A DNA stretch of 64,000 nt from Candidatus Poribacteria bacterium. GTDB lineage: Bacteria; Poribacteria; WGA-4E; JAJDTR01. This document shows positions 29,400-57,236 of this stretch, piece by piece. The stretch is taken from contig CBDBEE010000003.1 in the NCBI GenBank assembly GCA_965204085.1, forward strand, positions 1,449,981 to 1,513,980. The letters are read 5' to 3'. The position numbers and the translations under genes were made by a program. Numbering within the stretch: the stretch's first letter is position 1; every line of letters starts with the position of its first letter. The notes beneath the pieces were generated by a model, which worked only from the letters and a program-made list of their open reading frames with translations, made no database searches and was not told where the DNA came from.

Positions 29400-29872
29400 G
29401 ATGGACGCAGATGTAAAGGGAGAAGGAAGGTTGGAGAAGTATATGGGAAGGATGGAAGATTGGAAGGGTGGAAGAAACCATTGTCTGAATCACGGATTAA
29501 GCGGATTAAAGGATTTCACGGATTAAAGCCGCTCAATTGGTAGGGTAATGCGATTTGAAACCTTAGCTACCAGAGGATAAAATCAGTGTATTGATGGTCA
29601 AGATTCTATCGATGTGGACTGAGGTCCCCACGTTTTAAAGAAAAAACTCAGTTTCATCACGAACTTGCTTTTACAGATTGGATGTAAAATGAATGGCACT
29701 ATTTCAGGCCGACAAGACGCGTAACGGAGAGGATTCCATCAAAGATTGGAAACTGAGATTAGGCGTTTGGAGATGGTGAGAGGGGAATCTCTATCGCACA
29801 GGATTTTCTATCAGGACTATCTATAGCCTTGGGATCTCTATCGCATTCGTTATTCGCTCACTTGATTGTTCC
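29400..29872. repeat. Composite repeat: GGA-rich tract, CACGGAT x3, then two family 2 units. Right flank of the PhyH-like gene.
   Basis: gggagaaggaaggttggagaag...gggaaggatggaagattggaagggtggaag... gtctgaatcacggattaagcggattaaaggatttcacggattaaag. Then gggaatctctatcgcacagg (29783) and cttgggatctctatcgcattcgttattcgctcacttgat (29827). Confidence 0.5.
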
Positions 29873-29877
29873 GAGTT

Positions 29878-30054
29878 TCGCTGTTTCTTCCAAATGAATT
29901 TCAATGACCTCCAGGAGATTTTTCCTTGCCTCTTCGATATCCTTTCCACAACTCACAACGTCTAGCTCCGGACAGTGGGCGACGTACATGTTGCCCTCTT
30001 TCCATATTTCTTCCGTTATAACAAGGTTTTTCACTGTAGCCTCCTCGATCTATT
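29878..30054 (-). CDS. Small HicB-like (UPF0150) antitoxin-fold protein. Under 60 aa, so not in the ORF track.
   Basis: Manual translation of the minus strand: VKNLVITEEIWKEGNMYVAHCPELDVVSCGKDIEEARKNLLEVIEIHLEETAKLGTIK. GTG start 7 nt after GGAGG. No adjacent HicA. Confidence 0.45.
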
Positions 30055-30069: not shown

Positions 30070-31296
30070 CTATGGCATCCCGGCGATGATGTTCTGAACG
30101 TCGGTTTCCAATTCCAAGGTGATTTTCTGGGGCGTCTGCCTCTTTTCTTTCTTGTAGGTCTCATAGGAATCCAAGAGATTCTTGGGCGTCCCGATACGCA
30201 GGAAGGCATCCAAAGGACCTTTGACTTTCGATCTGCCGTACACCTCAACTTCGAGCCGCGTGATAACTTCCAGAAAGCGTTCTTGGGAGGGATCTTCGCC
30301 GATGTAGCCTTCGTAGATTGCGATTGAGTTCACGATACGGCGCAGGTCGATGTAAAACTGTCGAAACTTGTCAATGCGCTGTGCGTGAACCCCTCTCTCG
30401 TATTCGGTCATCTCATCCACGTCGCGGTAAATCTCCTCGTCGATTCGGTTCTGGATTGCCCGTACTCGCCGGAGTGGATTCCGGTCTGCTTGAGGTGCGA
30501 GTTCCAAGAAATTCTCCATCTGCGACAGAATGTGTTCGCGCATCTGCTGGATGCGTTCGTTGAGTGAACTCTCGTTGCCAAAGCGCAGGTGGTATTCTCT
30601 CGCAAGTATCGACAGCAGGCTGCCTCCGAGGTTCTTCACGCGGTCGTACAGGTCTTTGGGGTGGTCGGCAGGGTCGGGAAGGACGCTCTGCTCCAGATTG
30701 GTAATCGACTCCTCGATTTGACCCCACATGTCGCTTCTGTAGACATATTTTATTCCCACGGGCACGAGATAGAGGGGTTTTAGATCTTCCGCCTTTTCCA
30801 TGTCGTTGAGCGCCCACAAGCCGAACTGCACAATCCCGCTCTCGAACGGCATGATGGTCTCGTTCTGATGCGAGATTTCGCCTTCGCCGAAGATGACCAG
30901 CTTCCGCGCCCCTTTGGCGAGCGTTTGGCGCGTCATCCGAAACGAGTCCCGGTCCACGGCGCCGCGTATGACGGAGTAAACGCCGAGCCGCGTCATGAAG
31001 AACCCTCTCAATTTCAGCCCTGCTATTTTGCGGTCAAAGGTCTCTCGTGCGCACATGTACCGGAATCGTTCGCCGTAACGAGTTGACAGGGCGAACAACA
31101 CGTGCGGGTCGGCGCGGGAGGGGTGGTTCGGCACCAGAATGGTCGGATAGCCGTCAGTCGATTTCAGCTTGTCGAGAGATTCGGAGTCGATATCGACATG
31201 CGAGACCTTGGTTGTGAGGCGCATGAGAATCGGGAGCAGCGACTTCACGCTTCCGATCACGAGCCTGTTTTCCTTTGGCGGTTTGAAATCTAGCAT
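30070..31296 (-). CDS. Lysophospholipid / glycerol-3-phosphate acyltransferase family protein (PlsC-like).
   Basis: HX4D acyltransferase motif VPNHPSRADPHVLF and downstream FGEGEISH block. 408 aa. Confidence 0.6.
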   Translation of the reverse strand: MLDFKPPKENRLVIGSVKSLLPILMRLTTKVSHVDIDSESLDKLKSTDGYPTILVPNHPSRADPHVLFALSTRYGERFRYMCARETFDRKIAGLKLRGFFMTRLGVYSVIRGAVDRDSFRMTRQTLAKGARKLVIFGEGEISHQNETIMPFESGIVQFGLWALNDMEKAEDLKPLYLVPVGIKYVYRSDMWGQIEESITNLEQSVLPDPADHPKDLYDRVKNLGGSLLSILAREYHLRFGNESSLNERIQQMREHILSQMENFLELAPQADRNPLRRVRAIQNRIDEEIYRDVDEMTEYERGVHAQRIDKFRQFYIDLRRIVNSIAIYEGYIGEDPSQERFLEVITRLEVEVYGRSKVKGPLDAFLRIGTPKNLLDSYETYKKEKRQTPQKITLELETDVQNIIAGMP

Positions 31297-47053: not shown

Positions 47054-50000
47054 TCATCGAATAATGGCAAACCTGCTTATTTTGTTCCCGATGACCGCAT
47101 TCGATTCATCACGCGCCTCTACGTGGTAGATGTAGACGCCGCTGGCAAGTGCCTGATTGTTGTAACTGAGTAGGTCGAAAGATTCGGTGCCGCCCTTGTC
47201 GCCCTGTGCCAACCGCTCCTCCGCATCGTAGGGTGAGGTGTGTTCGTGTTCAATTTCTCGCACCAACTCGCCAGCCATGGTATAGATTCGCACCGTGCAT
47301 TTCGGCGGAAGGTGGGTAAAGAAGATTTTATCCGTTCCCTCGGAAATCACTGCTCTGTTCGTCACGAAGTAGGGATTCGGCACGATGCGGATTCGATCCA
47401 GATCGGCGCGAATGTCGTCTGCGATGAGCGTCTCGCCGCCGGTGTTGAGCACCAGCTCGTCGCCGTCCTGAGGGGCGCCAATCCCTCCCATTTTGACAGT
47501 GAATACATCCCCGGCAGAGATTTCAGCATTTGGATCTCTGATGAAAACGTACCCACCCCGTATGAAGATCCGAAAGAAGCCGGGGGTATTGGCCGGGTTA
47601 TATTCATCGCTCCAACCTGTGCCTGTGAAAATCGCATAGCCATCCGCACGCTCGCCTTTGAATTGAATTTCCTCACCGGTATCTTCATCCACCACTTTGA
47701 CATGTGTATCGTCAACAAAGGTTATCGAGTAGGTATGTGGACGGTAGTAGGTTGACCACCAGATGTTGGTCCAGGTGTTCTCCCCAACCCCGGGAGACTG
47801 AATGTCCACATTCCAATCTGTGACCGTGCCCTTGGTCAACGTTACACCTTCGATTGGGTTTTCGTTTGGATGCCCGTAGGTCACGTCAACCCCCTTTATC
47901 TTCAGGGTGATTCCATCAAACATCGGGGAAAGCGCTTCAACAGCCGCAATTTGCGTTGGGTCGTACCAACCGAAGGACTGTTTTTCCACAACCGTCTGAT
48001 TCGTGGTCATGTCAATGATTTCATAGGCGGGCGGCTGATAACCGGGGCCAGTGATATATGCATCAGCATCTATCGGTTTAGCACCATACCAAACCATTTT
48101 GTATTGATGTCCGGTGACATTCTTGGGGGCGATAATCATTGGCTCGACGGTGACGCTTCCAGTGCGCACAAAGGCGTTGTCCGCTAGCTCAGCAGTGGCA
48201 TCACGGTGCCCTGCGGGGCTCGCACGCGGCGTCACGTGAACCATCGTCTCGATCTGGCTGCTCTCCATCGCGATAAGCCCGGTCTTGGGATTGCCGGTGT
48301 CGTACGATGTGACGGCGTAGGTGTATTGAATCCCGTTCGTCAATCCTTCATCGGTATAGAAGGTCTTTATGCCCGCGTCCTCGCCGAGCGCTTGTGAAGG
48401 CGTGGAAACGATGCGGAAGATGTCGCCAGCCACAGGGGGACCCGAGGGACCATCCGAAATCTGCACATACAATCCGCCGAAGTAGATAAGCGATCCGGAA
48501 CGATACTCCCCATCGGGATAAACTTCGCCAGTATTGGGATTCATAACGACGTATCCACCGCCATCTGCCGGGAACTGAGGGTTAAGCGCCATCACTTCCC
48601 ACAGCGTTGTATTGATTATCTCATAGGTGGTGCTAGAATCGAACTTGATGACGTAGACGGCATTTTTGAAGAAATCGGCAAAGAATGGTTCGTCGCCTAT
48701 GGCGGCAATGGTGGCGTCCGACTGTTTACCGACGTGTGACACCGTGAGAAAGTTGCCGGTTGCGCTGGGTTTGTCAAACTCCGTCAGCATGACCCAATCC
48801 TGCACCGGGTCGCCGGTAGATTCGTCGTACGAAGTATCCCGTCTGTAGACTCTATAACCTTCGAAAACCTTCTCCGGGTCGGTAATGTCAACATATTCCT
48901 CAATGCTTTTCTTGACTCCTTCGTGAACCCATCCTTCGGCACTTTCCCATACGAGCGTCACCTGTCCATCGGCGGGATACGCCGCAACTTTCGGCGACGG
49001 CGGCGGTGCGGGTGCGACGTAGTCATCGTCATACAGTTTCTGCGCCCAGTCCGATGATGCTTGCAGCCCTTCAAGCCCTTCACCGATCGCCACTGCCGTG
49101 ATGACATTGAATACCTGCCCCGGCGCAAGCGACTCTATGGGGCCATAGGACTGAATGAAACGTTGGTCGTCGTAGTTTGCGGGAAGCGGATCGACACCGG
49201 GGACACTAATCAAGGCGTACATCTCGGCGGCGGTCGATGGATCGGTGGAAATTGTAATCCGTTTGTGCGCTGCGAACGGAATCTTGGCGTTAGCGTCCTG
49301 GGGGTTATCGCCAACGTAGGCATCCAAGACACGTAAGCCGACGAAGCCGGTAGACGAGGCGTTGGAATACCCGTAAGAGAGGTAGCGGTTCGGGTGGGCG
49401 TCGGGATTGAGGGCGTCGGGAGTTTCATCCAACGCAACGAAATCATCAGCGGAGTAATTCGCCGTTCCGGTTTCACTGCTGGAGACATCCACGTCGTATC
49501 GGAACGCCATGAATACATCTTCCAAGGTATCTCTGCCGACGTTGGTGACTTTGTACTCCAAGATGAAGAAATCGTAGAGCGGCGCGTAACTCCATTGGAA
49601 ACCGTTGACCTCGATTTCCAATCCAAGAATCAACTCGCGATTCGCCTCCGGGTTGGTGTCGGTGCATTTGAACCAGATTGATTGGCCGGTTGGTGTTCCC
49701 TTTGTCGTCATCCCCGGTTTGTTTGAAATGACCTCCGGCGAATCGTCGGTGGGCCAAATCTCGGACTGCCGTCCATCGGAGAAGGAGACGCCGACCTCTC
49801 CGCCCTTCTTGGCGCCGATCCAGATATCTCCTTCGTAGATATAGGAGTCGTTCGTCCCGGCGGGCCACCATCCGGATGGGTTTTGGGTCGGGCTGGTCGG
49901 GTAACCGACGACCGCGGTGTTGTAGACGGCGGAGGTTAGATTGCCGACATCAAGCGCCTTCCAATCTACGCCCCCCATTGCAGGCAGACTGGCTATGAGA

Positions 50001-50068
50001 AGAAGTGAGGACATTAGCAGCGACAGCGGGCGGAGGTTCGGATATCTATCCGGATTCTCAGGATTCAT
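47054..50068 (-). CDS. Large secreted protein (about 1000 aa) with a T9SS C-terminal sorting domain. Function unknown.
   Basis: Signal peptide from MNPENPDRYPNLRPLSLLMSSLLLIASLPA. C-terminus ...LASGVYIYHVEARDESNAVIGNKISRFAIIR has the T9SS CTD pattern. ORF-track start 50212 is probably too early. Confidence 0.55.
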   Translation of the reverse strand: MNPENPDRYPNLRPLSLLMSSLLLIASLPAMGGVDWKALDVGNLTSAVYNTAVVGYPTSPTQNPSGWWPAGTNDSYIYEGDIWIGAKKGGEVGVSFSDGRQSEIWPTDDSPEVISNKPGMTTKGTPTGQSIWFKCTDTNPEANRELILGLEIEVNGFQWSYAPLYDFFILEYKVTNVGRDTLEDVFMAFRYDVDVSSSETGTANYSADDFVALDETPDALNPDAHPNRYLSYGYSNASSTGFVGLRVLDAYVGDNPQDANAKIPFAAHKRITISTDPSTAAEMYALISVPGVDPLPANYDDQRFIQSYGPIESLAPGQVFNVITAVAIGEGLEGLQASSDWAQKLYDDDYVAPAPPPSPKVAAYPADGQVTLVWESAEGWVHEGVKKSIEEYVDITDPEKVFEGYRVYRRDTSYDESTGDPVQDWVMLTEFDKPSATGNFLTVSHVGKQSDATIAAIGDEPFFADFFKNAVYVIKFDSSTTYEIINTTLWEVMALNPQFPADGGGYVVMNPNTGEVYPDGEYRSGSLIYFGGLYVQISDGPSGPPVAGDIFRIVSTPSQALGEDAGIKTFYTDEGLTNGIQYTYAVTSYDTGNPKTGLIAMESSQIETMVHVTPRASPAGHRDATAELADNAFVRTGSVTVEPMIIAPKNVTGHQYKMVWYGAKPIDADAYITGPGYQPPAYEIIDMTTNQTVVEKQSFGWYDPTQIAAVEALSPMFDGITLKIKGVDVTYGHPNENPIEGVTLTKGTVTDWNVDIQSPGVGENTWTNIWWSTYYRPHTYSITFVDDTHVKVVDEDTGEEIQFKGERADGYAIFTGTGWSDEYNPANTPGFFRIFIRGGYVFIRDPNAEISAGDVFTVKMGGIGAPQDGDELVLNTGGETLIADDIRADLDRIRIVPNPYFVTNRAVISEGTDKIFFTHLPPKCTVRIYTMAGELVREIEHEHTSPYDAEERLAQGDKGGTESFDLLSYNNQALASGVYIYHVEARDESNAVIGNKISRFAIIR

Positions 50069-50159: not shown

Positions 50160-50531
50160 TCATGCGGTTTGCAACTGGTATGGTTGAACCAAGATATCTG
50201 CGGAGATGCCAAGTCCTTCGTGCAAATTCCGAATCATGTCGAGAGTCAAAGCGCGTTGCCGATTCAAGACTTCTGACACATAGGATTGGGAGCCCAAGTA
50301 GGGTTCAAGATCGTGACGAGACAACCCTTGACTCTCCATGTGGTGAAGGATAGTCTCAACCGGATCTGGCGGCGGTACGGGGTAATGCTCCTGTTCGTAT
50401 GCCTCAACCAAGGTGACCAGTACATCGAGTTTATCCCCCTCTGGCGAACCGTGAGGTGCTTCCCAGAAGCGTTGAATCTCTCGCAACGCGGCTTCATAGT
50501 CTGATTCGGTTTTTATCGGTTTAATATCCAT
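50160..50531 (-). CDS. HigA-family (COG5499-like) HTH antitoxin. No HigB partner seen.
   Basis: MDIKPIKTESDYEAALREIQRFWEAPHGSPEGDKLDVLVTLVEAYEQEHYP...LSRHDLEPYLGSQSYVSEVLNRQRALTLDMIRNLHEGLGI is the HigA pattern. ATG at 50531. Confidence 0.55.
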   Translation of the reverse strand: MDIKPIKTESDYEAALREIQRFWEAPHGSPEGDKLDVLVTLVEAYEQEHYPVPPPDPVETILHHMESQGLSRHDLEPYLGSQSYVSEVLNRQRALTLDMIRNLHEGLGISADILVQPYQLQTA

Positions 50532-50580
50532 GGTTATCACATTAAAATCACGCCGCATAGATTTTATCATGTACTTGGCG

Positions 50581-50802
50581 CTAAGACGACTGTTCCTGTT
50601 GTAGGTACGACCATGCGGTATCCTCTTCCGGACGATTCCAGTCTTCAGCGAGCGCGGCTTCGCTGAGCCATGCAGTTTCAGAAAAATCTCGCTCATCGGT
50701 GAGAATCGTCACAACGGCTCGTCGTGGTTCTGACAATTGGATTGGCTCTAGCAATCGCACGTTACCTTGTTCATCAATTGTAGCTTCAATGGTTTGTTGC
50801 AT
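50581..50802 (-). CDS. DUF104-like (AF2212-type) putative antitoxin with a C-terminal acidic EDW tail.
   Basis: MQQTIEATIDEQGNVRLLEPIQLSEPRRAVVTIL matches the DUF104 style. Tail LAEDWNRPEEDTAW resembles the tail of the 53481-53750 protein. Confidence 0.4.
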   Translation of the reverse strand: MQQTIEATIDEQGNVRLLEPIQLSEPRRAVVTILTDERDFSETAWLSEAALAEDWNRPEEDTAWSYLQQEQSS

Positions 50803-50848
50803 TGTTTACCCCCTAATCATAAAGCCAAGAATTGCCGCCATCAACCGT

Positions 50849-51463
50849 TTAGAAGATGCTTATGAAGAAGACGTCCTTTAGTGCGAAAATCGCCATAACC
50901 ACGCCTACAACTACCAAGAAGACACAGGAGACAAAATTAGTAGACACAGCAGACGTACGGTAATACTCGTTCATGACAGGGACAATCTGTTTGAGCACGG
51001 AGCTTTGCGCGCGCTGTTTTACCTTGATGGTGCCCGTTCCCATCCAGGATTGAACAGCGACTTGCAGGTCGGCATTGACCGACGTGAGGCGTATCACGGA
51101 AAGACTCTCTTCGTAGGGCATCTGCAGTTTTTGGAGCGCCGCGACCAGCGCCTCACGAAACGACGTATCCGTAACGGCGTATGCGACATAGCCTTTGAGT
51201 TGATACCACATCATCACCAAGATAACTCCATAGAGAAGAGTGGTTGTCCACCCCATGATCTCGCCAGAAAAGGACTTCAGGGACAGAACAATACCCGGCA
51301 CCAAAGCAACAAAAATCAATGAAAGCATCCATCTGTTGGAGACTAAGAAGGGACGCTTCGTCAAAATAGCCCTAATCCCAATCCCAAAGAAAAAGATTGC
51401 CATCATTCCAGCCGTTATTGGAAAGAGAACCGAATATATTATGTCGAAATAGTCGCGTTCCAT
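50849..51463 (-). CDS. Hypothetical 4-TM membrane protein.
   Basis: 204 aa with three N-terminal TM helices, a soluble region of about 70 aa, and a C-terminal TM. Tightly linked to the 2H phosphoesterase gene. Confidence 0.3.
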   Translation of the reverse strand: MERDYFDIIYSVLFPITAGMMAIFFFGIGIRAILTKRPFLVSNRWMLSLIFVALVPGIVLSLKSFSGEIMGWTTTLLYGVILVMMWYQLKGYVAYAVTDTSFREALVAALQKLQMPYEESLSVIRLTSVNADLQVAVQSWMGTGTIKVKQRAQSSVLKQIVPVMNEYYRTSAVSTNFVSCVFLVVVGVVMAIFALKDVFFISIF

Positions 51464-51491
51464 GTTCTATAGCTCCTGAAACTCGGAACTA

Positions 51492-52028
51492 TCAATCTAG
51501 CTCGTACATACACAGTGTATGACAACTGGTCGGTGAAACCTCCATCAGTCCTATCTCTTTGACTTCTGCCGAGATGGGTAAAGGAATACCTCGACAGATT
51601 GGCACCGCTTCGGCAATTTGACGCTCGGACAAACCGAAGGCGAGCGTGCAGTGCGGAACCCACTTCCCGACGGCGTAGTGTTCGGATTGTTCCTGTGCGT
51701 GCGTTTTGAAAATCTTATGAAATGCCGCATGTACGTCCAGCAAGTGCTCGGTGACTGTTACGCCCAAGAATATGACACCTTCCACGCCGGGAAAGGTGCC
51801 TACACTGGAGAGCGACAGCCGAAATGGTGCGAGGCTCGCCGCAAAGGTGGAAAGCGCCTCCGCAAACGCATTAGGCTCAAGACGGTTACAAACTCCCAGT
51901 GAGATGTGTGGACGGTAGCCGGCATCCAGCAAAGACGAGCCAATCCCGGCTTCGTGAATCGCACTCCACGCATCGCATATTTGCTCCTCGGCTAGGGTGT
52001 CAAAGCGCAACTCAACAGCAAACGGCAT
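51492..52028 (-). CDS. 2H phosphoesterase superfamily protein (LigT / 2'-5' RNA ligase-like).
   Basis: Two H-x-T/S-x motifs, PHISLGV and PHCTLAF, at LigT-like spacing. 178 aa. Confidence 0.6.
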   Translation of the reverse strand: MPFAVELRFDTLAEEQICDAWSAIHEAGIGSSLLDAGYRPHISLGVCNRLEPNAFAEALSTFAASLAPFRLSLSSVGTFPGVEGVIFLGVTVTEHLLDVHAAFHKIFKTHAQEQSEHYAVGKWVPHCTLAFGLSERQIAEAVPICRGIPLPISAEVKEIGLMEVSPTSCHTLCMYELD

Positions 52029-52073
52029 AAATGAACTTCAAAAACGGTAATGTCCATCAGTCGGTGAAGTGGT

Positions 52074-52283
52074 TTAAGCAGCACGGATTTCCGCCTTGAA
52101 TTTCCGGATTACCGGTTTCAAACTAGGCTGAGGAAACTCAAAATGGAGTTCCAACGCTTCTCTTAGATTAACCAATGCTTCTTCTTCGCTTTCACCCTGA
52201 CTCGCAACATCAACCTCTAAACATTGGGCAATAAACCAGTCGCCTACTCTCGAAATACTTGCCGTAAATGTTTGGGTTTTCAT
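52074..52283 (-). CDS. HicB-family antitoxin-like protein. No HicA adjacent.
   Basis: MKTQTFTASISRVGDWFIAQCLEVDVASQGESEEEALVNLREALELHFE is the HicB N-domain pattern. ATG at 52283. Confidence 0.5.
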   Translation of the reverse strand: MKTQTFTASISRVGDWFIAQCLEVDVASQGESEEEALVNLREALELHFEFPQPSLKPVIRKFKAEIRAA

Positions 52284-52314
52284 TTTGGTTCGGTTTCTCC
52301 GCTCCCCAGCAACG

Positions 52315-53139
52315 CTAAATGTCAGATTCGTCAATTCGATTGTAGATGTCAGTGCCCATACTGACCAACTTCTCACGGATTTCGGGCCAGTCGTCCTGAT
52401 TCTTCTTTCCCCTATCAAGAACACGGAACACTATTGATGTGGACTTCACAGCCTCCGTACATTCGTAATTGTATCCTGATTCTTGGAATAACTTCACAAC
52501 TTCATCCCTGCGTTCTAATCTGGTTTCTCCCTCGAATTGGAGCGCGATAGCGCAATAATTATTGCGAAGTCGAAGAATCAATGACACGCCGCGGACACTC
52601 TTACTAATCCAACCGTCATCGCTGATAGGTACGGGCTTTCCGGAAAACAGTCCGTCTCTACGAATCGGCTCCCAGAATTCGCTATATTCAACGCCTGCTT
52701 TCTTTTCGGTTTGGATATCTATCGCGGGCCGAACGACATGGTGAAAAGACAACTCATTGTGTGCATTGGCTTGAGCACGAATAAGATACCAGTCAATTTC
52801 GCTGTCTTCATTTCGGAGACTACACGTGACAATCATGAGCTCCTCGAAACTTTCGGCGACCAACACGGCGACTGTGGCTTCTTTCAATCGCGCGTAAGCT
52901 TCAAGTCTGCCCCAGTGGTCCCAATCTGCTTCGCCAAACTGGTTTTCGACCACAAGAATACTATTTCCATCTGTTCCAACAGCGACTATATCCGCCTTTC
53001 GCGTACCTACATTAGACTCCGTCTCCGCGTCTTCAAAGTTACCAATTTCAAGCGCATTAAGCGTATTAGCAAGATCTTCCGAAAAATCTTCTTCTCGTTG
53101 GTAGATGTCTGAGAGTGGTATTGATTGTTGAAGTCTCAT
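52315..53139 (-). CDS. PD-(D/E)xK nuclease-like N-domain fused to a DUF4268-like C-domain. Candidate toxin or effector.
   Basis: RKADIVAVGTDGNSILVVENQFGEADWDHWGRLEAYA resembles a restriction-endonuclease-like D...E-x-Q/K core. Domain assignment is from memory of family style, not searched. Confidence 0.35.
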   Translation of the reverse strand: MRLQQSIPLSDIYQREEDFSEDLANTLNALEIGNFEDAETESNVGTRKADIVAVGTDGNSILVVENQFGEADWDHWGRLEAYARLKEATVAVLVAESFEELMIVTCSLRNEDSEIDWYLIRAQANAHNELSFHHVVRPAIDIQTEKKAGVEYSEFWEPIRRDGLFSGKPVPISDDGWISKSVRGVSLILRLRNNYCAIALQFEGETRLERRDEVVKLFQESGYNYECTEAVKSTSIVFRVLDRGKKNQDDWPEIREKLVSMGTDIYNRIDESDI

Positions 53140-53155
53140 TTGGCTATTTTCTCGG

Positions 53156-53524
53156 TCATAGATTCAACGTATATCGTAAAGCGACGTCAATTTCGGCCAT
53201 GGGAACCGAACCAATAACGCGATCAATTGCCGACTCGCCGACCGTGGCAAGATTGTCAGTTAGCACTACCGAGTCCATGAGTAGCCCCGATTGTCGTCCT
53301 TCGGGAGTAGAAAGTAAAACGGCGACACGGCTGCGATGATTGGCACGGAACATCCTGCTGGAGATCATCGCCACAATTACTTGCTGGAAGCCGGTTTGAA
53401 GATTGTCAGCTTGAATAACCAATCCCGGACGCGATTTAGCAGTCAGTAAGTTGGAGTGTGGAAAGAGCAGCAAGATTACATCACCGCGTTTGTAGGCTGG
53501 ATTTGACCTCGTCATAGTTGTCAT
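53156..53524 (-). CDS. MazF/PemK-family endoribonuclease toxin.
   Basis: KRGDVILLLFPHSNLLTAKSRPGLVIQAD...QQVIVAMISSRMFRANH...VAVLLSTPEGRQSGLLMDSVVLTDNLATV is the PemK pattern. Overlaps the upstream antitoxin gene. Confidence 0.7.
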   Translation of the reverse strand: MTTMTRSNPAYKRGDVILLLFPHSNLLTAKSRPGLVIQADNLQTGFQQVIVAMISSRMFRANHRSRVAVLLSTPEGRQSGLLMDSVVLTDNLATVGESAIDRVIGSVPMAEIDVALRYTLNL

Positions 53525-53750
53525 AGGCGTCCATCTCAGGATTTTCCCAGTCTTCGGCAAAGAATTCCAAGCGCCCACGCAAAACTGCCGCTTGTGTTTC
53601 GTCAATACCGCGTTCCCGTAAATTTATGGAGTTGGATGCAAGAAAGGTAACAATTACGGGGGTGTCTTCAGATACATCATGAGGCGTTTTCGAAAGTTCA
53701 ATCTTGCCATCCCGATACACACCTTGAATAGTTGTTGACATAATCGTCAC
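53481..53750 (-). CDS. Putative antitoxin for the MazF-like toxin (DUF104-like N-terminus with acidic EDW tail).
   Basis: MSTTIQGVYRDGKIELSKTPHDVSEDTPVIVTFL and tail FFAEDWENPEMDAYDNYDE. Translationally coupled to the MazF-like gene. Confidence 0.45.
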   Translation of the reverse strand: MTIMSTTIQGVYRDGKIELSKTPHDVSEDTPVIVTFLASNSINLRERGIDETQAAVLRGRLEFFAEDWENPEMDAYDNYDEVKSSLQTR

Positions 53751-53753
53751 CCT

Positions 53754-54080
53754 TTACGACTCTTGTCTACCTTCGTAGACCGGCTGCAACTTGCACTGGA
53801 CGAATGCCTCCAACAGATTGAGTCCCCACTTTCTCTTGGGGATGTCAGCAGCAAGTAGGAAATTTACTCGATCTGTACATTTCATAATCCAGTCGCCCAC
53901 GTTATCCTTGTCAAGGCGATGTTCCCTCACTACGTTTTCATCTCTCAACAGTGACGCAGCCAAAGTGCTCGGTGCTCGACACGGGTCGTAATGATGACTC
54001 TTATACCGGGCACCAGACTTCGGTCCTGCTCTAACCACCTTCAGAACACGCTCTGAATTGGAAAAGACGTAAACCGCCAT
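53754..54080 (-). CDS. Hypothetical protein, first gene of the TA-rich cluster.
   Basis: ATG at 54080. Stop 4 nt before the next gene. No family recognised. Confidence 0.3.
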   Translation of the reverse strand: MAVYVFSNSERVLKVVRAGPKSGARYKSHHYDPCRAPSTLAASLLRDENVVREHRLDKDNVGDWIMKCTDRVNFLLAADIPKRKWGLNLLEAFVQCKLQPVYEGRQES

Positions 54081-54227
54081 TTTTCCGCGCGGCAAACTTG
54101 GCGGTGTGTGTGGCATCTGCTGAGGTTTGACGCAAAAATCGTCCGGCTAAATGTCAATTTCAGCCAACTCGGCAACTTTCAAGAAACCCTCCCTAAGCTC
54201 TTCGGGGGTCCAGTTCATACTCTTCTC

Positions 54228-57200
54228 CTAAAAATCCAAACTCACGCCCATCATCATCAAACGTGGGCTATTCCAAGAGAGCGGGCTCGAGTGCTTTCTG
54301 GAGTTGAGCGGGATGCCGTAGCGGTCATATGTCACTGCATCAACGATGTCGTCCAGATTCTTCGTATTGAAGACATTCCGCACATCGGCAAAGATGGTGT
54401 ATGTCAACTCGCCTACCCGGATTCGTTTGCTCAGAAGCATATCAACATTGTGAGTCGGCGGGTAGCGTTTTGAATTTATATCGGGTTTGACCGGCGATCT
54501 CGGATTTGGCGTGTAGGGCAAGCCGCTGCCGTACCTACCAATCAAGTTGATGCCGACGTCAAATGGCAATTGAATGTCCAACGACCCGGAAACGACGTGT
54601 CGTTGGTCCCAGGCTAAAGGGTGGCTTTCCGTGACTTCGGGCTGTTGCCGATAGTAGGTCAGATAACCCAAGGCTCGGCTGGAGCCCTTCCCCTTCGCTA
54701 CGGAATAGGTGTAGTTAATCATGCCGGAAATCGGGCTGCGTCCTATACGCCACTTGCGAGCAGTGAGTTCAAATCCTTGCACCCGGCCGTAGATGTCGTT
54801 AATGAAGTAGCTGTAATCGTTGGTGATGTCAACGTGGACGCTGCTCACCAGATTGTCGATATCCTTGGTGAAACCGGTGACATTGACCGTCAGGTCGCGA
54901 GTCAATTGCTGGGCTATCCCGACCTCGTAGGCAACGGTTCTCTCCGGTTCCAGATTGGGATTCCCTCGTCTGCGGATAGCGCCCCGCATATCAAAACTGA
55001 GATTTTCGTAGAGATCGTCGCCGGGCGGAATCTGGTAGTAGTGCCCGTAGGTAAAGTGCAGTTTTGCGCGATCGGTAACCGGGAATGAGATACCGAGGCG
55101 CGGAGCAAGCATGTGTTTAACGGAAGGCTCGACCGGATCTTTGATGATGGGCAACCCGACTTTGTAGGTGTCTTTATCCAACTTGATAGTGCCATCGTCG
55201 TTGAGTTCAAGCGGATCCAACGGGTCGGCGGGGGAGATGCCGTCCGGACTATAGAGTTCGTACCGCAGTCCGGCGTTGACAATCATCCCCTCATACTCCA
55301 TTTTGTCTTGCACGTACAGGCTCATGGAGCCGGGTTTTACGTCGTAAAACTCCATGTAGAGGTTCGAACTCCCGTAATTTGTCGCGCCGAGATTATAAAT
55401 CGCGTTCCTTGAGAGCTCAACCCCTGTACGGACTTGGTGATTCTCCGTTACTTGGCTGGAGAAATCAGCTTTCAAGATGTTTGCAGTCGTTTCTCGGGTC
55501 GTCCACGCGTTGTCATCTCCGGCAATGAAATAGTTTGTATCGTTGTAAGCCTGCTGGGTCGGGTTTCTGATTCTTCCCTCCTCCTGATTCTGTTCAAAGG
55601 ATTTTTCCGGATCCCATGCGTTTTCTTCAAACGTCTTATTCAAGGGATCCCACAGTTTATCCGGTTGATGGCTTTCATAGGTACGGTGGAATTGTCCGAG
55701 AGTCAACGTGTAGAATGTACCCGAGTTGAGATTGTGCGAGAACTGTAGGGACATGCTGCGGGCATCTCTGTTCGCCACCGGAATGGCGCTGGGCAAAAAG
55801 CGCAGTGTGCCTCCGTATGAATCGGCTTCGCGTTGATCAAACAATCCGCTTGCGGTGAGTTTGATGTCAGGCGTCACTTCAAATTTGAGTTTGCCCTGAA
55901 CCGTGTGTCCCGTTCCATTGCCGTTGGGGAGGTAACCTTCATCTCGCCGCAACTGACTTGCGGCGGAGAACGTCAACCGATTGCCCCACAGCGGCCCGCT
56001 GAGCGCAAATTCGCCGATATGGCTTGGACGCAGATCGTAATTCTTGGTATCGTTGAAAAGCCCGCTGTACTGGTTCAAATCCACGATGTATCCGTCCAAT
56101 AGGGTTACCTGTTTCTTTTCGTAATCGATGACGGTGCCGTCGGTGTCGCGGTAGGGTTGGGGGGCGGTAATGACATCGCCCGTATCGGGATTCAGCTTGG
56201 GTTCGCCGGTCTCCGGATCAATGACAGGTAGAAGGGGGTTTTCTGCCCTGTCGGCGAAGACGCCCGGGACAATCTCCGTGAAGACGACTTGTTCATCGCC
56301 TTCTCGTGCTGCCAACTCCTCCACCGTGACACTCTGCCCGCGGTACGGCGTTTGATAATCGTAGGGTCTACCGAGGAAGATTCCCCTGAAGGGCTCCAAT
56401 GCCACCGGGCGGAAGCCGTTGTCGGGGTCCAACCAGGGCCCGTAAACAGGGTCGCCGTGGTGCGTGCCCCATTGTCCGACGCGGTACCTGAATCTGCCGG
56501 TGAAGTTTTGTGCTCCGGCTTTCGTTATAAGATTTATCACTCCGGACTGCGCATCGCCGTGTTCCGCGTTGAATCCGCCGGTGATGACTTCCATTTGTTC
56601 GAGCGAATTTGTGCTAATATTCACCCCCAGACCTCTGCCGATGGGATCGTTCACCGGGATGCCGTCCATGAGGTACTTGACCTCCATGGATCGTCCGCCT
56701 CGTACGTGGAGCGTACCGGTGGCATTGAGTTGCGTGACCCCCGCTTGCAGTTGAAGGATTCCATTCACGGTATCGCGGGGCATGGCGGCAATCTCCTCCG
56801 CTTCAATAATCCTTGTGGTTTGCGTGACATCCATTTTAATCAGCGGTTTGGCGGCGGTTACGGTAATTTCTTCGAGCGTGATAACCTCGGCAGCCCCCAA
56901 ATCGAAGTCGAGAGTTGTGGTCAGTCCGGCAAGCACCTTGGCGCCCATGACGGTCTGGGAACTGTAACCCGCTCTTTCAACCCTTAAATCATAGGTTCCC
57001 GGCGCAATATTGGCGATAACATAATAACCGGTCTGGCTGGTGGTTGTGGTGTCACTTGTCCCAACCACGGTAATTTTGGCGTTCGCGAGGGGTGTCTGAG
57101 TTGCTTCGGACGTGACTATGCCTGAAATCTTTCCGGTGATGGCGGCGGAGGCAGTGCGGTAACTTGAGGGGCCTGCAAACAGAAGTACGGTTAGGCAAAG

Positions 57201-57236
57201 GGTAGGTATCCAGGAGAAGAGGGTTGTTTTTTTCAT
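54228..57236 (-). CDS. TonB-dependent receptor with an N-terminal carboxypeptidase-regulatory-like domain (SusC/RagA-like architecture).
   Basis: Signal peptide. CarbopepD_reg-like GKISGIVTSEATQTPLANAKITVVG...GYYVIANIAPGTYDLRVERAGY. Plug LEEITVTAAKP...DTVNGILQ. About 1000 aa barrel. Confidence 0.85.
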   Translation of the reverse strand: MKKTTLFSWIPTLCLTVLLFAGPSSYRTASAAITGKISGIVTSEATQTPLANAKITVVGTSDTTTTSQTGYYVIANIAPGTYDLRVERAGYSSQTVMGAKVLAGLTTTLDFDLGAAEVITLEEITVTAAKPLIKMDVTQTTRIIEAEEIAAMPRDTVNGILQLQAGVTQLNATGTLHVRGGRSMEVKYLMDGIPVNDPIGRGLGVNISTNSLEQMEVITGGFNAEHGDAQSGVINLITKAGAQNFTGRFRYRVGQWGTHHGDPVYGPWLDPDNGFRPVALEPFRGIFLGRPYDYQTPYRGQSVTVEELAAREGDEQVVFTEIVPGVFADRAENPLLPVIDPETGEPKLNPDTGDVITAPQPYRDTDGTVIDYEKKQVTLLDGYIVDLNQYSGLFNDTKNYDLRPSHIGEFALSGPLWGNRLTFSAASQLRRDEGYLPNGNGTGHTVQGKLKFEVTPDIKLTASGLFDQREADSYGGTLRFLPSAIPVANRDARSMSLQFSHNLNSGTFYTLTLGQFHRTYESHQPDKLWDPLNKTFEENAWDPEKSFEQNQEEGRIRNPTQQAYNDTNYFIAGDDNAWTTRETTANILKADFSSQVTENHQVRTGVELSRNAIYNLGATNYGSSNLYMEFYDVKPGSMSLYVQDKMEYEGMIVNAGLRYELYSPDGISPADPLDPLELNDDGTIKLDKDTYKVGLPIIKDPVEPSVKHMLAPRLGISFPVTDRAKLHFTYGHYYQIPPGDDLYENLSFDMRGAIRRRGNPNLEPERTVAYEVGIAQQLTRDLTVNVTGFTKDIDNLVSSVHVDITNDYSYFINDIYGRVQGFELTARKWRIGRSPISGMINYTYSVAKGKGSSRALGYLTYYRQQPEVTESHPLAWDQRHVVSGSLDIQLPFDVGINLIGRYGSGLPYTPNPRSPVKPDINSKRYPPTHNVDMLLSKRIRVGELTYTIFADVRNVFNTKNLDDIVDAVTYDRYGIPLNSRKHSSPLSWNSPRLMMMGVSLDF

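Follow-up and report, generated by a model that had tools for sequence, protein, structure and literature searches.

We found that the nine co-directional minus-strand ORFs at 50160-54116 of the window (the whole stretch of 64,000 nucleotides that was analysed, taken from a Candidatus Poribacteria genome) very probably constitute a mosaic toxin-antitoxin (TA)/defence island of independent modules, which occupies the variable slot of a locus with conserved synteny across Candidatus Poribacteria. The modules would be a MazEF pair (g2-g3), three orphan antitoxins (g5, g8 and g9), the nuclease g4, the phosphoesterase g6, the backbone gene g7 and the nonsense-interrupted gene g1. Read in this way, the block is no new multi-part machine but an addiction/defence island of the ordinary kind. 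The genes are as follows:

53754..54218, minus strand: g1, hypothetical; residual ORF 53754-54116, in-frame TAG at 54149-54147
53481..53741, minus strand: g2, antitoxin in the MazE position, 86 aa; 44-nt overlap with g3
53156..53524, minus strand: g3, predicted MazF/PemK endoribonuclease toxin, 122 aa; PF02452, 1.6e-12
52315..53139, minus strand: g4, NucS-like PD-(D/E)xK protein with a DUF4268-like C-terminal domain; PDC-S11 homologue
52074..52283, minus strand: g5, orphan HicB-like antitoxin, 69 aa; DUF7387, 7.5e-7, and PHROG HicB-like
51492..52028, minus strand: g6, predicted 2H phosphoesterase, 178 aa; PF13563, 1.7e-19, 70.8 bits
50849..51463, minus strand: g7, membrane protein with four predicted TM helices and a conserved alpha/beta loop domain
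50581..50802, minus strand: g8, orphan MazE-like antitoxin, 73 aa; RelN antitoxin at 1e-4, below cut-off
50160..50531, minus strand: g9, orphan HigA-type HTH antitoxin, 123 aa; HTH_3

Layout of the block and its flanks

The original prediction of nine minus-strand genes with gaps of no more than 50 nt was confirmed: the spacings from g1 to g9 are 12, -44 (an overlap), 16, 31, 45, 28, 46 and 49 nt, the last being the largest gap. Since eight of the nine have conserved homologues in many genomes, g1-g9 are genuine genes and not chance ORFs. Most of the family labels proposed earlier also held, and profile, PDB and TM searches agreed with MazF for g3, HicB for g5, 2H phosphoesterase for g6, a four-TM protein for g7 and a HigA-type HTH for g9. 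The label DUF104-like proved weak for both g2, which had no family match, and g8, for which the AF2212-like score was just 0.08 and the RelN match fell below the cut-off. The start previously assigned to g1 is an internal ATG at 54080, and the ORF extends to 54116. Orthologues of g1 are about 152-157 aa long, begin with MNWDPEQIRDDF... and lie directly after the TonB receptor; in the window the gene reads MNWTPEELREGFLKVAELAEIDI*, and the frame then goes on past the stop. Judged from these reading frames, g1 is a conserved hypothetical gene interrupted by a nonsense codon. It is present in 8 of the 45 complete loci compared below, some 115-122 nt after the receptor, and had no match in Pfam, PDB, PADLOC or PHROG, also in a profile-based search.

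The receptor upstream of the block is TonB-dependent, and the more specific SusC-like assignment had to be dropped because SusC/RagA membership requires 368 bits and it scored 33.7. The downstream protein of about 1000 aa, which had been described as a T9SS cargo, was matched only weakly, to the C-terminus of PorZ, a T9SS protein; it is a probable T9SS substrate, and the next gene belongs to the PorV/PorQ family (218 bits). The GC content was 0.45-0.50 in the block versus 0.52-0.58 in the flanks, which, together with gene content that differs between genomes, bore out the island character suggested at the outset.

Variable gene content among orthologous loci

The comparison set consisted of 63 loci from about 60 species, 45 of them complete orthologous loci (individual loci are given L numbers). 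Presence counts and pairwise tests refer to these 45, with the kinship of the loci ignored in the statistics and with ORFs called by a crude custom procedure; intactness was scored per gene, the fragment-only loci of g4 being counted apart from the intact ones. All 45 kept a constant backbone of TonB receptor, g7, the ~1000-aa protein and PorV, and g1-g6, g8 and g9 occurred in subsets and orders that changed between loci. Intact copies were counted in 45 loci for g7, 24 for g4 (with 9 more fragment-only), 23 for g9, 21 for g2, 11 each for g3 and g6, 9 each for g5 and HigB, 8 each for g1 and g8, and 4 for HicA. Only two loci, the window and its close relative L010, had all nine genes intact.

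The canonical pairs were associated (g2-g3, p=0.013; g5-HicA, p=0.0008; g9-HigB, p=0.022), and no significant association was found among the 45 loci for g4-g6 (p=0.18), g4-g5 (p=0.14), g5-g6 (p=0.67), g4-g2 (p=0.37) or g4-g3 (p=0.18). Tight arrangements did recur, namely g2-(g3)-g4-(g5), g4 followed by g6 after 17 nt, and g6-g2-g3, and some of g2, g3, g4, g5 and g6 may be functionally linked, as they recur together, often close, in many Poribacteria. A co-occurrence check had been proposed with the original prediction; when it was run, the homologues did co-occur elsewhere, but they did so in a single phylum only, at this one syntenic locus and in variable subsets and orders, a pattern that fits shared ancestry with differential loss. 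The best-matching genome changed from gene to gene. A segment of 1.7 kb carrying g2-g5 (window positions 53720-52020) was about 99.8% identical to L010 and the adjoining segments were 63-90% identical; such near-identity amid flanks diverged by 10-37% marks a recent cassette exchange.

One intact TA pair, three orphan antitoxins and scars of toxin loss

The prediction that the MazF pair is the only canonical TA module of the block agreed with our results, and g2-g3 is, as judged from its gene families, the sole intact TA pair, of MazEF type. Besides its Pfam match, g3 matched the PHROG MazF-like family at 3.9e-11 and MazF6/PemK in the PDB at about 8e-3. By analogy with characterised MazEF systems, the pair would presumably act as a type II addiction/abortive module in which the labile antitoxin neutralises the endoribonuclease. 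As in MazEF (PemIK), a gene with a PemK/MazF domain is preceded by a small gene that overlaps it by 44 nt, an overlap that recurs (-40 nt) in 11-12 other loci. The difference lies in the antitoxin: g2 resembles g8 (32% identical) and, weakly, the AF2212/RelN-type N-terminal region, and none of the curated families, MazE/PemI and AbrB included, matched it in family profile searches. About half of the loci with g2 have it as an orphan, g3 having been lost or degraded there.

That antitoxin-like genes are in excess and toxin-less in the window, as had been noted before, was borne out for HicB, g8 and HigA. At these three genes the window also contains short stretches related to toxin genes:

52067..52096, minus strand: possible hicA 5' remnant, about 10 codons; tblastn 90% over HicA residues 2-11, E 0.14, junction aligned
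50582..50614, minus strand: second mazF remnant, first 11 codons MVVPTTGTVVL; overlaps the 3' end of g8
50548..50577, minus strand: higB 3' remnant QVHDKIYAA*; 16 nt upstream of g9

The HicB N-terminal domain of g5 (DUF7387, 29.9 bits versus a cut-off of 27.9) and the canonical pairing of its orthologues with HicA, whose intact genes (PF07927, 2.3e-18) they overlap in L025, L037, L041 and L058, correspond to HicAB systems; the window differs in that hicA appears deleted and g5 is a short HicB of 69 aa without the DNA-binding domain. The possible hicA remnant is weak when taken alone, the stretch overlapping conserved hicB coding sequence at the end of g5. A frameshifted PemK/MazF gene comes after g8 in L026 and L014 (PF02452 at 5.5e-7 and 2.6e-8 once frame-corrected), and the second mazF remnant of the window matches the N-terminus MVVPTTGVVVLVPFPF... 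of this decayed MazF in both loci. Upstream of the g9 orthologues in nine loci we found intact HigB (PF09907, 7.8e-27) at a distance of 13-24 nt, mostly 14, and in the alignment with L007 about 326 nt are cleanly deleted from the window, so that of higB just the last ~30 nt are left. The HigA-type HTH of g9 (PDB HigA 5ycl/5ifg at about 3e-4; E. coli HigA 5ifg at 3.8e-4) and the canonical pairing of its orthologues with HigB are those of E. coli-type HigBA, from which the window differs by the deletion of the toxin gene.

The canonical toxins in orthologous loci and the deletion scars of higB and the second mazF in the window thus point to toxin losses behind the orphan antitoxins, and the cognate genes hicA, second mazF and higB appear to have been deleted in the lineage of the window. 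Degrading TA pairs commonly leave orphan antitoxins (PMC7192599), and those of the window may be harmless leftovers, or may have been retained as anti-addiction factors or regulators. The protein g9 also matched PD-lambda-2B (2e-43; Vassallo et al. 2022, PMC9519451), though only in the HigA-like domain at the N-terminus, positions 1-121 of 402 of PD-Lambda-2_B; the PD-lambda-2 system was rejected, as g9 has no C-terminal peptidase domain and there is neither a HigB-like A nor a P4-antitoxin-like C component.

The backbone gene g7

The membrane protein gene g7 was present in 45/45 loci whatever TA genes were around it, and its homologues that bear organism names are Poribacteria, which suggests a Poribacteria-specific backbone gene and not cargo. 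One could extend this to g4 and g6 and regard all three as ordinary members of an operon (receptor - T9SS-substrate - PorV) that serves the cell envelope and into which only the small TA genes were inserted. The PMT_2 glycosyltransferase and Gfo/Idh/MocA genes that adjoin the never-missing g7 in most species are consistent with such an operon, as are the gaps of just 17-36 nt between receptor, g4, g6 and g7 in several species (L055, L036) and identities of g4 and g6 that roughly follow backbone divergence. However, g4 has a restriction-endonuclease-like fold and matches a defence-candidate profile, is fragmentary in nine loci and missing in others, and is found in TA/defence islands of other bacteria, and g6 occurs in only about a quarter of the loci. 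An envelope operon containing all three genes is therefore unlikely; for g7 taken singly an envelope role is likely, and for g4 unlikely.

The nuclease g4

The N-terminal domain of g4 has a PD-(D/E)xK fold for which NucS is closest; the C-terminal domain is of DUF4268 type through transitive homology, a Pfam search giving no direct DUF4268 hit. The protein matched the PADLOC profile PDC-S11 over its full length. It is shorter (~274 aa versus the ~310-aa profile), has the catalytic triad D-E-x-Q and not D-E-x-K, and in Poribacteria is a long-term resident adjoining the TonB receptor; like PDC-S11, it is a single gene in defence/TA neighbourhoods. Outside Poribacteria, homologues of 68-69% identity stand solitary among HEPN/MNT, ParE/Phd, PIN and HicAB genes. 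The match itself gave just the name PDC-S11, which is filed in the PADLOC 'PDC-S' series, a series that we take to hold single-gene candidates; PDC-S11 is itself a candidate only, and a literature search for it found correlative mentions and no direct experimental test or mechanism. We consider g4 a predicted stand-alone nuclease, homologous to this single-gene defence candidate, and it could well serve as an anti-phage nuclease.

It is quite improbable that MazE-MazF and g4, with or without HicB, form one smaller defence/addiction unit, in which g4 would be, for example, a second effector that shares the antitoxin or the promoter. The order g2-(g3)-g4-(g5), which about 18 loci share and in which 20-60 nt separate g4 from the preceding g3 or g2, would suit such a unit, as would a g2-like gene that overlaps the start of g4 by 4 nt in L073 and the near-identity of the g2-g5 block to L010 despite differing backbones. 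A recombination tract, however, carries contiguous DNA regardless of joint gene function, and the tests of g4 against g2 and g3 were not significant. Moreover, g4 lies directly behind the receptor without g2 or g3 in L029, L036, L044, L055, L020, L022, L026, L042 and L052 (in several Poribacteria without g2, g5 or g6), a different order, g4-g6-g2-g3, is found in L029, L063 and L075, and both the solitary homologues beyond the phylum and the PADLOC series speak for a gene on its own.

The phosphoesterase g6

Both motifs of g6, H41xS43 and H126xT128, were intact when read off the sequence, and with the Pfam 2_5_RNA_ligase2 match they relate it to the LigT/ThpR group of PF13563; it differs from that group in scoring 26.9 against the ThpR/LigT equivalog cut-off of 65.7 and in having no relative in a PDB sequence search. 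The best 120 of its 297 homologues were all at least 62% identical, and the few that are named or were traced to a contig were Poribacteria at the same locus, so g6 is probably a lineage-restricted 2H phosphoesterase. Upstream of g7 it alternates with the Gfo/Idh/MocA gene, which occurred in 0/11 loci with g6 versus 16/34 without (p=0.004).

Cleavage by MazF leaves 2',3'-cyclic phosphate ends, and g6 might be coupled functionally to the island's endoribonuclease toxins by processing the RNA ends of this kind that MazF/HicA/HigB-type cleavage would leave, healing them or blocking repair. Intact MazF was present in 6/11 loci with g6 versus 5/34 without it (OR ~7, p=0.014 uncorrected), g6 is directly upstream of g2-g3 in L029, L035, L063 and L075, and its catalytic motifs are preserved. 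The association nevertheless stems from about two clades or arrangements, hence few independent events, and is lost after correction for 14 tests; L016, L036 and L073 have g6 without any intact toxin, and the alternation with Gfo/Idh/MocA suggests positional history and not toxin coupling. We regard the link as very improbable.

Comparison with other TA islands

The original prediction itself, one undescribed multi-component system in which HicB, HigA and the second DUF104-like protein would control g4, g6 and g7 as stand-in effectors or toxins, is disfavoured and extremely unlikely: the genes are co-directional and closely spaced, a close relative (L001/L010) keeps the same order and other Poribacteria have these families at their orthologous loci too, but in orthologous loci the partner positions are taken by the canonical toxins HicA and HigB and by a second MazF, while the window keeps deletion scars, g7 is present regardless of antitoxins, g4 is found without g5, g6 or g8 and beyond the phylum, and the full set is rare, with g4, g5 and g6 not significantly associated.

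A mosaic island of independent modules resembles the type II TA islands with orphan antitoxins described in a Klebsiella pneumoniae population survey (PMC7192599) and in sponge symbionts, which are enriched in TA systems, HigAB included (PMC5649159): small TA genes are clustered in a variable chromosomal slot, antitoxins outlast toxins, toxin remnants or pseudogenes are left behind, and GC is below that of the flanks. It differs in that a single candidate phylum keeps the same slot and module families in about 45 of its species, with a receptor identity of 70-95%, so that successive stages of decay are visible at one locus.

Gene layout of the cluster

Nine co-directional ORFs of the minus strand, g1 to g9 in the direction of transcription, lie between a TonB-dependent receptor gene and a gene for a protein of about 1000 aa. 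The spacers from g1 to g9 measured 12, -44, 16, 31, 45, 28, 46 and 49 nt, in agreement with the earlier claim that gaps are at most 50 nt.

Genes of the cluster and its neighbours (window coordinates; strand; description)
54228-57236; TonB-dependent receptor gene
53754-54116; minus; g1, residual ORF of a hypothetical gene, no family
53481-53741; minus; g2, small antitoxin gene of a MazEF-type pair
53156-53524; minus; g3, PemK/MazF toxin
52315-53139; minus; g4, PDC-S11/NucS-like, DUF4268-type nuclease candidate
52074-52283; minus; g5, HicB-like antitoxin
51492-52028; minus; g6, predicted 2H phosphoesterase
50849-51463; minus; g7, membrane protein, backbone gene
50581-50802; minus; g8, MazE-like antitoxin
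50160-50531; minus; g9, HigA-type HTH protein
47054-50068; gene of the ~1000-aa protein

The GC content was 0.45-0.50 within the block versus 0.52-0.58 in the flanks, with the exception of the g6 region (0.55). Scanning of both strands for promoters returned 10 promoter-like sites, weak matches, versus 4.6 expected, and 6 terminator-like sites were found versus 4.3 expected; neither scan defined a sub-operon. No Rfam family was found in 44-64 kb and no tRNA across the whole window, and a tRNA-linked integrative element was therefore ruled out.

A conserved Poribacteria locus with variable slots

The named g7 homologues came from Candidatus Poribacteria. Species-representative genomes scanned by alignment yielded 63 loci, almost all from Poribacteria MAGs. 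The nine proteins and the flanking genes were compared with these loci by tblastn, our own ORF calls were clustered and recurrent families were annotated with Pfam. The comparison revealed a backbone running phoH - ybeY - corC - recO - TonB receptor - slot A - (Gfo/Idh/MocA) - g7 (one to four copies) - (PMT_2 glycosyltransferase) - slot B - ~1000-aa protein - PorV/PorQ-family gene - slot C - sulfatase, in which the slots are variable gene positions. Genes g1-g6 occupy slot A and g8-g9 slot B, and g7 is a backbone gene. PorV/PorQ is a firm assignment (NF033709, 218 bits), and the ~1000-aa protein has only a weak match to the C-terminus of PorZ, a T9SS protein. The receptor, though TonB-dependent, is not a SusC/RagA member, and its description as SusC-like was rejected. 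A reverse-strand ORF family of about 73 aa (F17, with 'GFEPPT') recurs between corC and recO in loci L024-L064; it looks like a spurious ORF, a tRNA gene read as protein.

Cluster genes and cognate toxins in 45 complete loci (intact; fragment only)
g7; 45/45; 0
g4; 24/45; 9
g9; 23/45; 4
g2; 21/45; 4
g3; 11/45; 3
g6; 11/45; 0
g5; 9/45; 0
HigB; 9/45; 2
g1; 8/45; 0
g8; 8/45; 1
HicA; 4/45; 0

We consider the block most likely a mosaic toxin-antitoxin (TA)/defence island of separate modules. All modules are of known families and together they form a typical island of the TA/defence kind; what is unusual here is that the same slot persists phylum-wide, with stages of decay visible.

The MazEF-type pair and the orphan antitoxins

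The g3 product matched the PemK/MazF domain (PF02452, 48 bits versus a cut-off of 23.1, 1.6e-12) as well as a MazF-like PHROG and MazF6/PemK in the PDB. The small gene g2 lies directly upstream and overlaps g3 by 44 nt, an arrangement repeated in 11-12 other loci. Direct family searches of Pfam, NCBIfam, PADLOC and PHROGs returned no match for g2, which is 32% identical to g8. The toxin domain and the overlapping upstream antitoxin gene are those of a MazEF module and, as had been predicted, this pair is the sole intact TA module of the cluster, g2-g3 alone keeping both partners. By analogy with the family it would act as a type II module in which the labile antitoxin g2 restrains the endoribonuclease g3.

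The original prediction described an antitoxin-rich cluster with a nuclease, a phosphoesterase and a membrane protein at toxin positions. Its gene layout and single MazF pair held, but not the replacement of toxins by odd enzymes, as the canonical toxins were found elsewhere. The g5 product is a HicB-type antitoxin (DUF7387, 29.9 bits versus a cut-off of 27.9; HicB-like PHROG, 2.3e-4), its direct match to HicB in the PDB being not significant (E=1). Orthologues of g5 (71-77% identity) overlap HicA genes, and in L025, L037, L041 and L058 an intact HicA (PF07927, 2.3e-18) does so by 10-22 nt. HicA was absent from the 45-nt gap after g5 and from the whole window. A possible hicA remnant, the first codons only, overlaps g5 (E 0.14) and is weak by itself because it overlaps the hicB coding sequence; HicA loss is argued from the orthologous loci and not from this remnant.

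The g9 product is of the HigA type (HTH_3, 26.3 bits versus 23; E. coli HigA structures in the PDB, about 3e-4; TIGR02607, under the cut-off). Nine loci and L007 carry an intact HigB gene (PF09907, 7.8e-27) 13-24 nt, mostly 14 nt, upstream of the g9 orthologue. Aligned with L007, the window shows a clean deletion of about 326 nt, so that a HigB gene directly upstream of g9 is reduced to its last ~30 nt at 50577-50548, 16 nt before g9, reading QVHDKIYAA* in the window versus QVYDKINVATI* in L007. Assignment of g9 to PD-lambda-2 was rejected. PD-lambda-2B joins a HigA-like domain to a C-terminal peptidase, in a system that adds a HigB-like A and a P4-antitoxin-like C component (PMC9519451), whereas the strong PADLOC match of g9 (123 aa) was domain-only, limited to the HigA-like N-terminal third (profile positions 1-121 of 402), so g9 is a plain HigA. 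No match to the A or C component was obtained in the cluster with PADLOC.

For g8, only sub-threshold antitoxin matches were detected (RelN, 1e-4; AF2212-like, 0.08). In L014 and L026 it is followed by a frameshifted gene which, when frame-corrected, encodes PemK/MazF (PF02452, 2.6e-8 and 5.5e-7). The first 11 codons of this second mazF remain in the window (MVVPTTGTVVL, 50614-50582), overlapping the end of g8. With the toxins intact or frameshifted at orthologous loci and scars in the window, g5, g8 and g9 are thus all remnants of canonical TA pairs whose toxins were lost. Retention of the antitoxin after toxin loss is a known pattern (PMC7192599), and sponge symbionts are enriched in TA systems, HigAB included (PMC5649159). 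A false lead is thereby removed: toxin-less antitoxins beside odd enzymes here reflect toxin loss, not a new system. From what is known of their families, the orphan HicB, MazE-like and HigA proteins would be harmless leftovers; they may retain the ability to counteract cognate toxins that enter the cell, or work as repressors.

Further HicB-like genes were observed. One ORF of the window (29858-30034, minus strand, 58 aa, 41% identical to g5) lies ~35 nt downstream of a 408-aa ORF (30070-31296), with no HicA evident beside it. Another copy directly follows PorV in about a dozen species (L029, L036, L037, L040, L043, L049-L053) and marks the third variable slot; HicA beside it is intact in two of these (L029 and L040), with fragments in two others (L049 and L052).

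The nuclease gene g4 and the phosphoesterase gene g6

The g4 product matched the PADLOC profile PDC-S11 over its full length (4.2e-20, residues 5-262 to profile positions 9-297 of 314) and has a PD-(D/E)xK nuclease fold with the conserved acidic residues. It had no Pfam match, PF14088 (DUF4268) not being found directly at E<0.1; full-length homologues of 28-31% identity carry PF14088 in the C-terminal half (1e-22 to 1e-27). Homologues of 68-69% identity are solitary on contigs of a 'Deltaproteobacteria' MAG and another organism (L076-L080), where no homologue of the other cluster genes was found within 6 kb and the neighbours are HEPN/MNT, ParE/Phd, PIN/Phd and HicAB genes. In Poribacteria, g4 often directly follows the receptor, without g2, g5 or g6. 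These placements and the match to PDC-S11, whose PDC-S label we take to denote single-gene candidates, fit g4 being a self-contained gene. By analogy with its family it is a candidate DNA-targeting defence nuclease. PDC-S11 is itself a defence candidate, of which a homologue now stands within a well-defined comparative context. Outside the phylum, g4 is as similar as it is among distant Poribacteria, suggesting transfer between phyla. Elsewhere the DUF4268-like C-terminal domain is fused to TPR arrays, coiled coils or a 5'-3' exonuclease N-domain (proteins P0379, P0381, P0385, P0394 and P0397) and behaves as a mobile domain.

The g6 product belongs to the 2H family (PF13563, 70.8 bits versus a cut-off of 27; motifs H41-I-S43 and H126-C-T128) and by analogy is a putative phosphoesterase; it stayed below the ThpR/LigT equivalog level (TIGR02258, 26.9 bits versus 65.7). 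The best 120 of its 297 homologues were all at least 62% identical, and the two traced ones lie at the same Poribacteria locus. Mutual exclusion was observed between g6 and the Gfo/Idh/MocA gene just upstream of g7 (0/11 versus 16/34, p=0.004; L012, L016, L029, L036, L044, L049, L055 and L063 versus L034-L068).

Gene associations and history of the block

Canonical TA pairs were associated among the loci and the proposed non-canonical pairs were not.

Pair associations (Fisher tests, uncorrected p values, kinship among loci ignored)
g2-g3; p 0.013
g5-HicA; p 0.0008
g9-HigB; p 0.022
g4-g6; p 0.18
g4-g5; p 0.14
g5-g6; p 0.67
g4-g2; p 0.37
g6-MazF; p 0.014, OR about 7

Identity to L010 (the close relative L010/L001) is uneven along the block. 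From ~53720 to 52020 (about 7720-9440 in L010), a stretch with g2, g3, g4, g5 and the first codons of g6, nucleotide identity is ~99.8%, versus 63-90% in the adjoining segments (g1, g6 and backbone). The g1 protein has 53% identity to L010 and 81% to L014; for g6 the protein identity to L010 is 79%. These values indicate parts with different histories and a 1.7-kb cassette exchanged recently by recombination or transfer.

It is unlikely that some of the long-resident non-TA genes are functionally coupled to the RNase toxins. One form of this reading, a two-effector cassette of MazEF and the g4 nuclease moving between strains as the 1.7-kb block, has that shared stretch in its favour and is similarly doubtful; g4 and g2 were not associated. 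The other form, in which the Poribacteria-restricted g6 would be an accessory acting on the 2',3'-cyclic-phosphate ends made by the island's MazF-type toxins, either 'healing' these RNA ends or blocking their repair, is a little less probable again: the g6-MazF association comes from roughly two clades or arrangements, and multiple-test correction would remove it. A single multi-component system, its genes co-occurring as one set in fixed order, is highly improbable, since all nine are intact in 2/45 loci (the window and L010/L001), subsets and orders vary (g2-g3-g4-g5-g6; g4-g6-g2-g3; g2-g4-g5-HicA; g7-g2-g4-g6-g7) and the non-canonical pairs lack significant association.

For the mosaic island, about 45 Poribacteria species have the same slot and the same TA families in various states of decay, which makes the locus a clear natural series in which to follow TA degradation (toxin first, antitoxin kept) and cassette exchange between strains.

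The backbone gene g7 and the residual gene g1

Judged by its relatives, g7 is a Poribacteria-specific family of predicted membrane proteins. Its conservation is high (mean column identity 71%), and 2-4 tandem paralogues are often present (noted in L011-L028, L049, L051 and L059). The gene usually lies between the Gfo/Idh/MocA and PMT_2 glycosyltransferase genes, with PorV and a probable T9SS substrate close by. Direct searches of Pfam, NCBIfam, PADLOC and PHROGs returned nothing for g7, the fold search was a dead end and an exact-sequence look-up gave no record; L001 differs by a 2-codon indel in g7. From family knowledge it would belong to an envelope-related backbone, and is an unstudied gene of that backbone between the TonB receptor and the probable T9SS substrate/PorV pair. 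Homologues of 37-50% identity occur without the Poribacteria backbone on Terriglobia, Pyrinomonadaceae and Anaerolineales contigs (L065, L069 and L072), which are either out-of-phylum relatives or mis-binned.

No family was found for g1 in Pfam, NCBIfam, PADLOC or PHROGs, and a profile of its orthologues against PDB sequences and Pfam was also empty; a GIY-YIG-like motif noted by eye was dropped, unsupported by these searches. The orthologues are ~152-157 aa long and start right after the receptor. Compared with them, g1 in the window is interrupted at codon 24 by an in-frame TAG (54149-54147), so g1 as read here is truncated or a pseudogene. The L011 copy has an internal stop of its own, at another place close to the 3' end.
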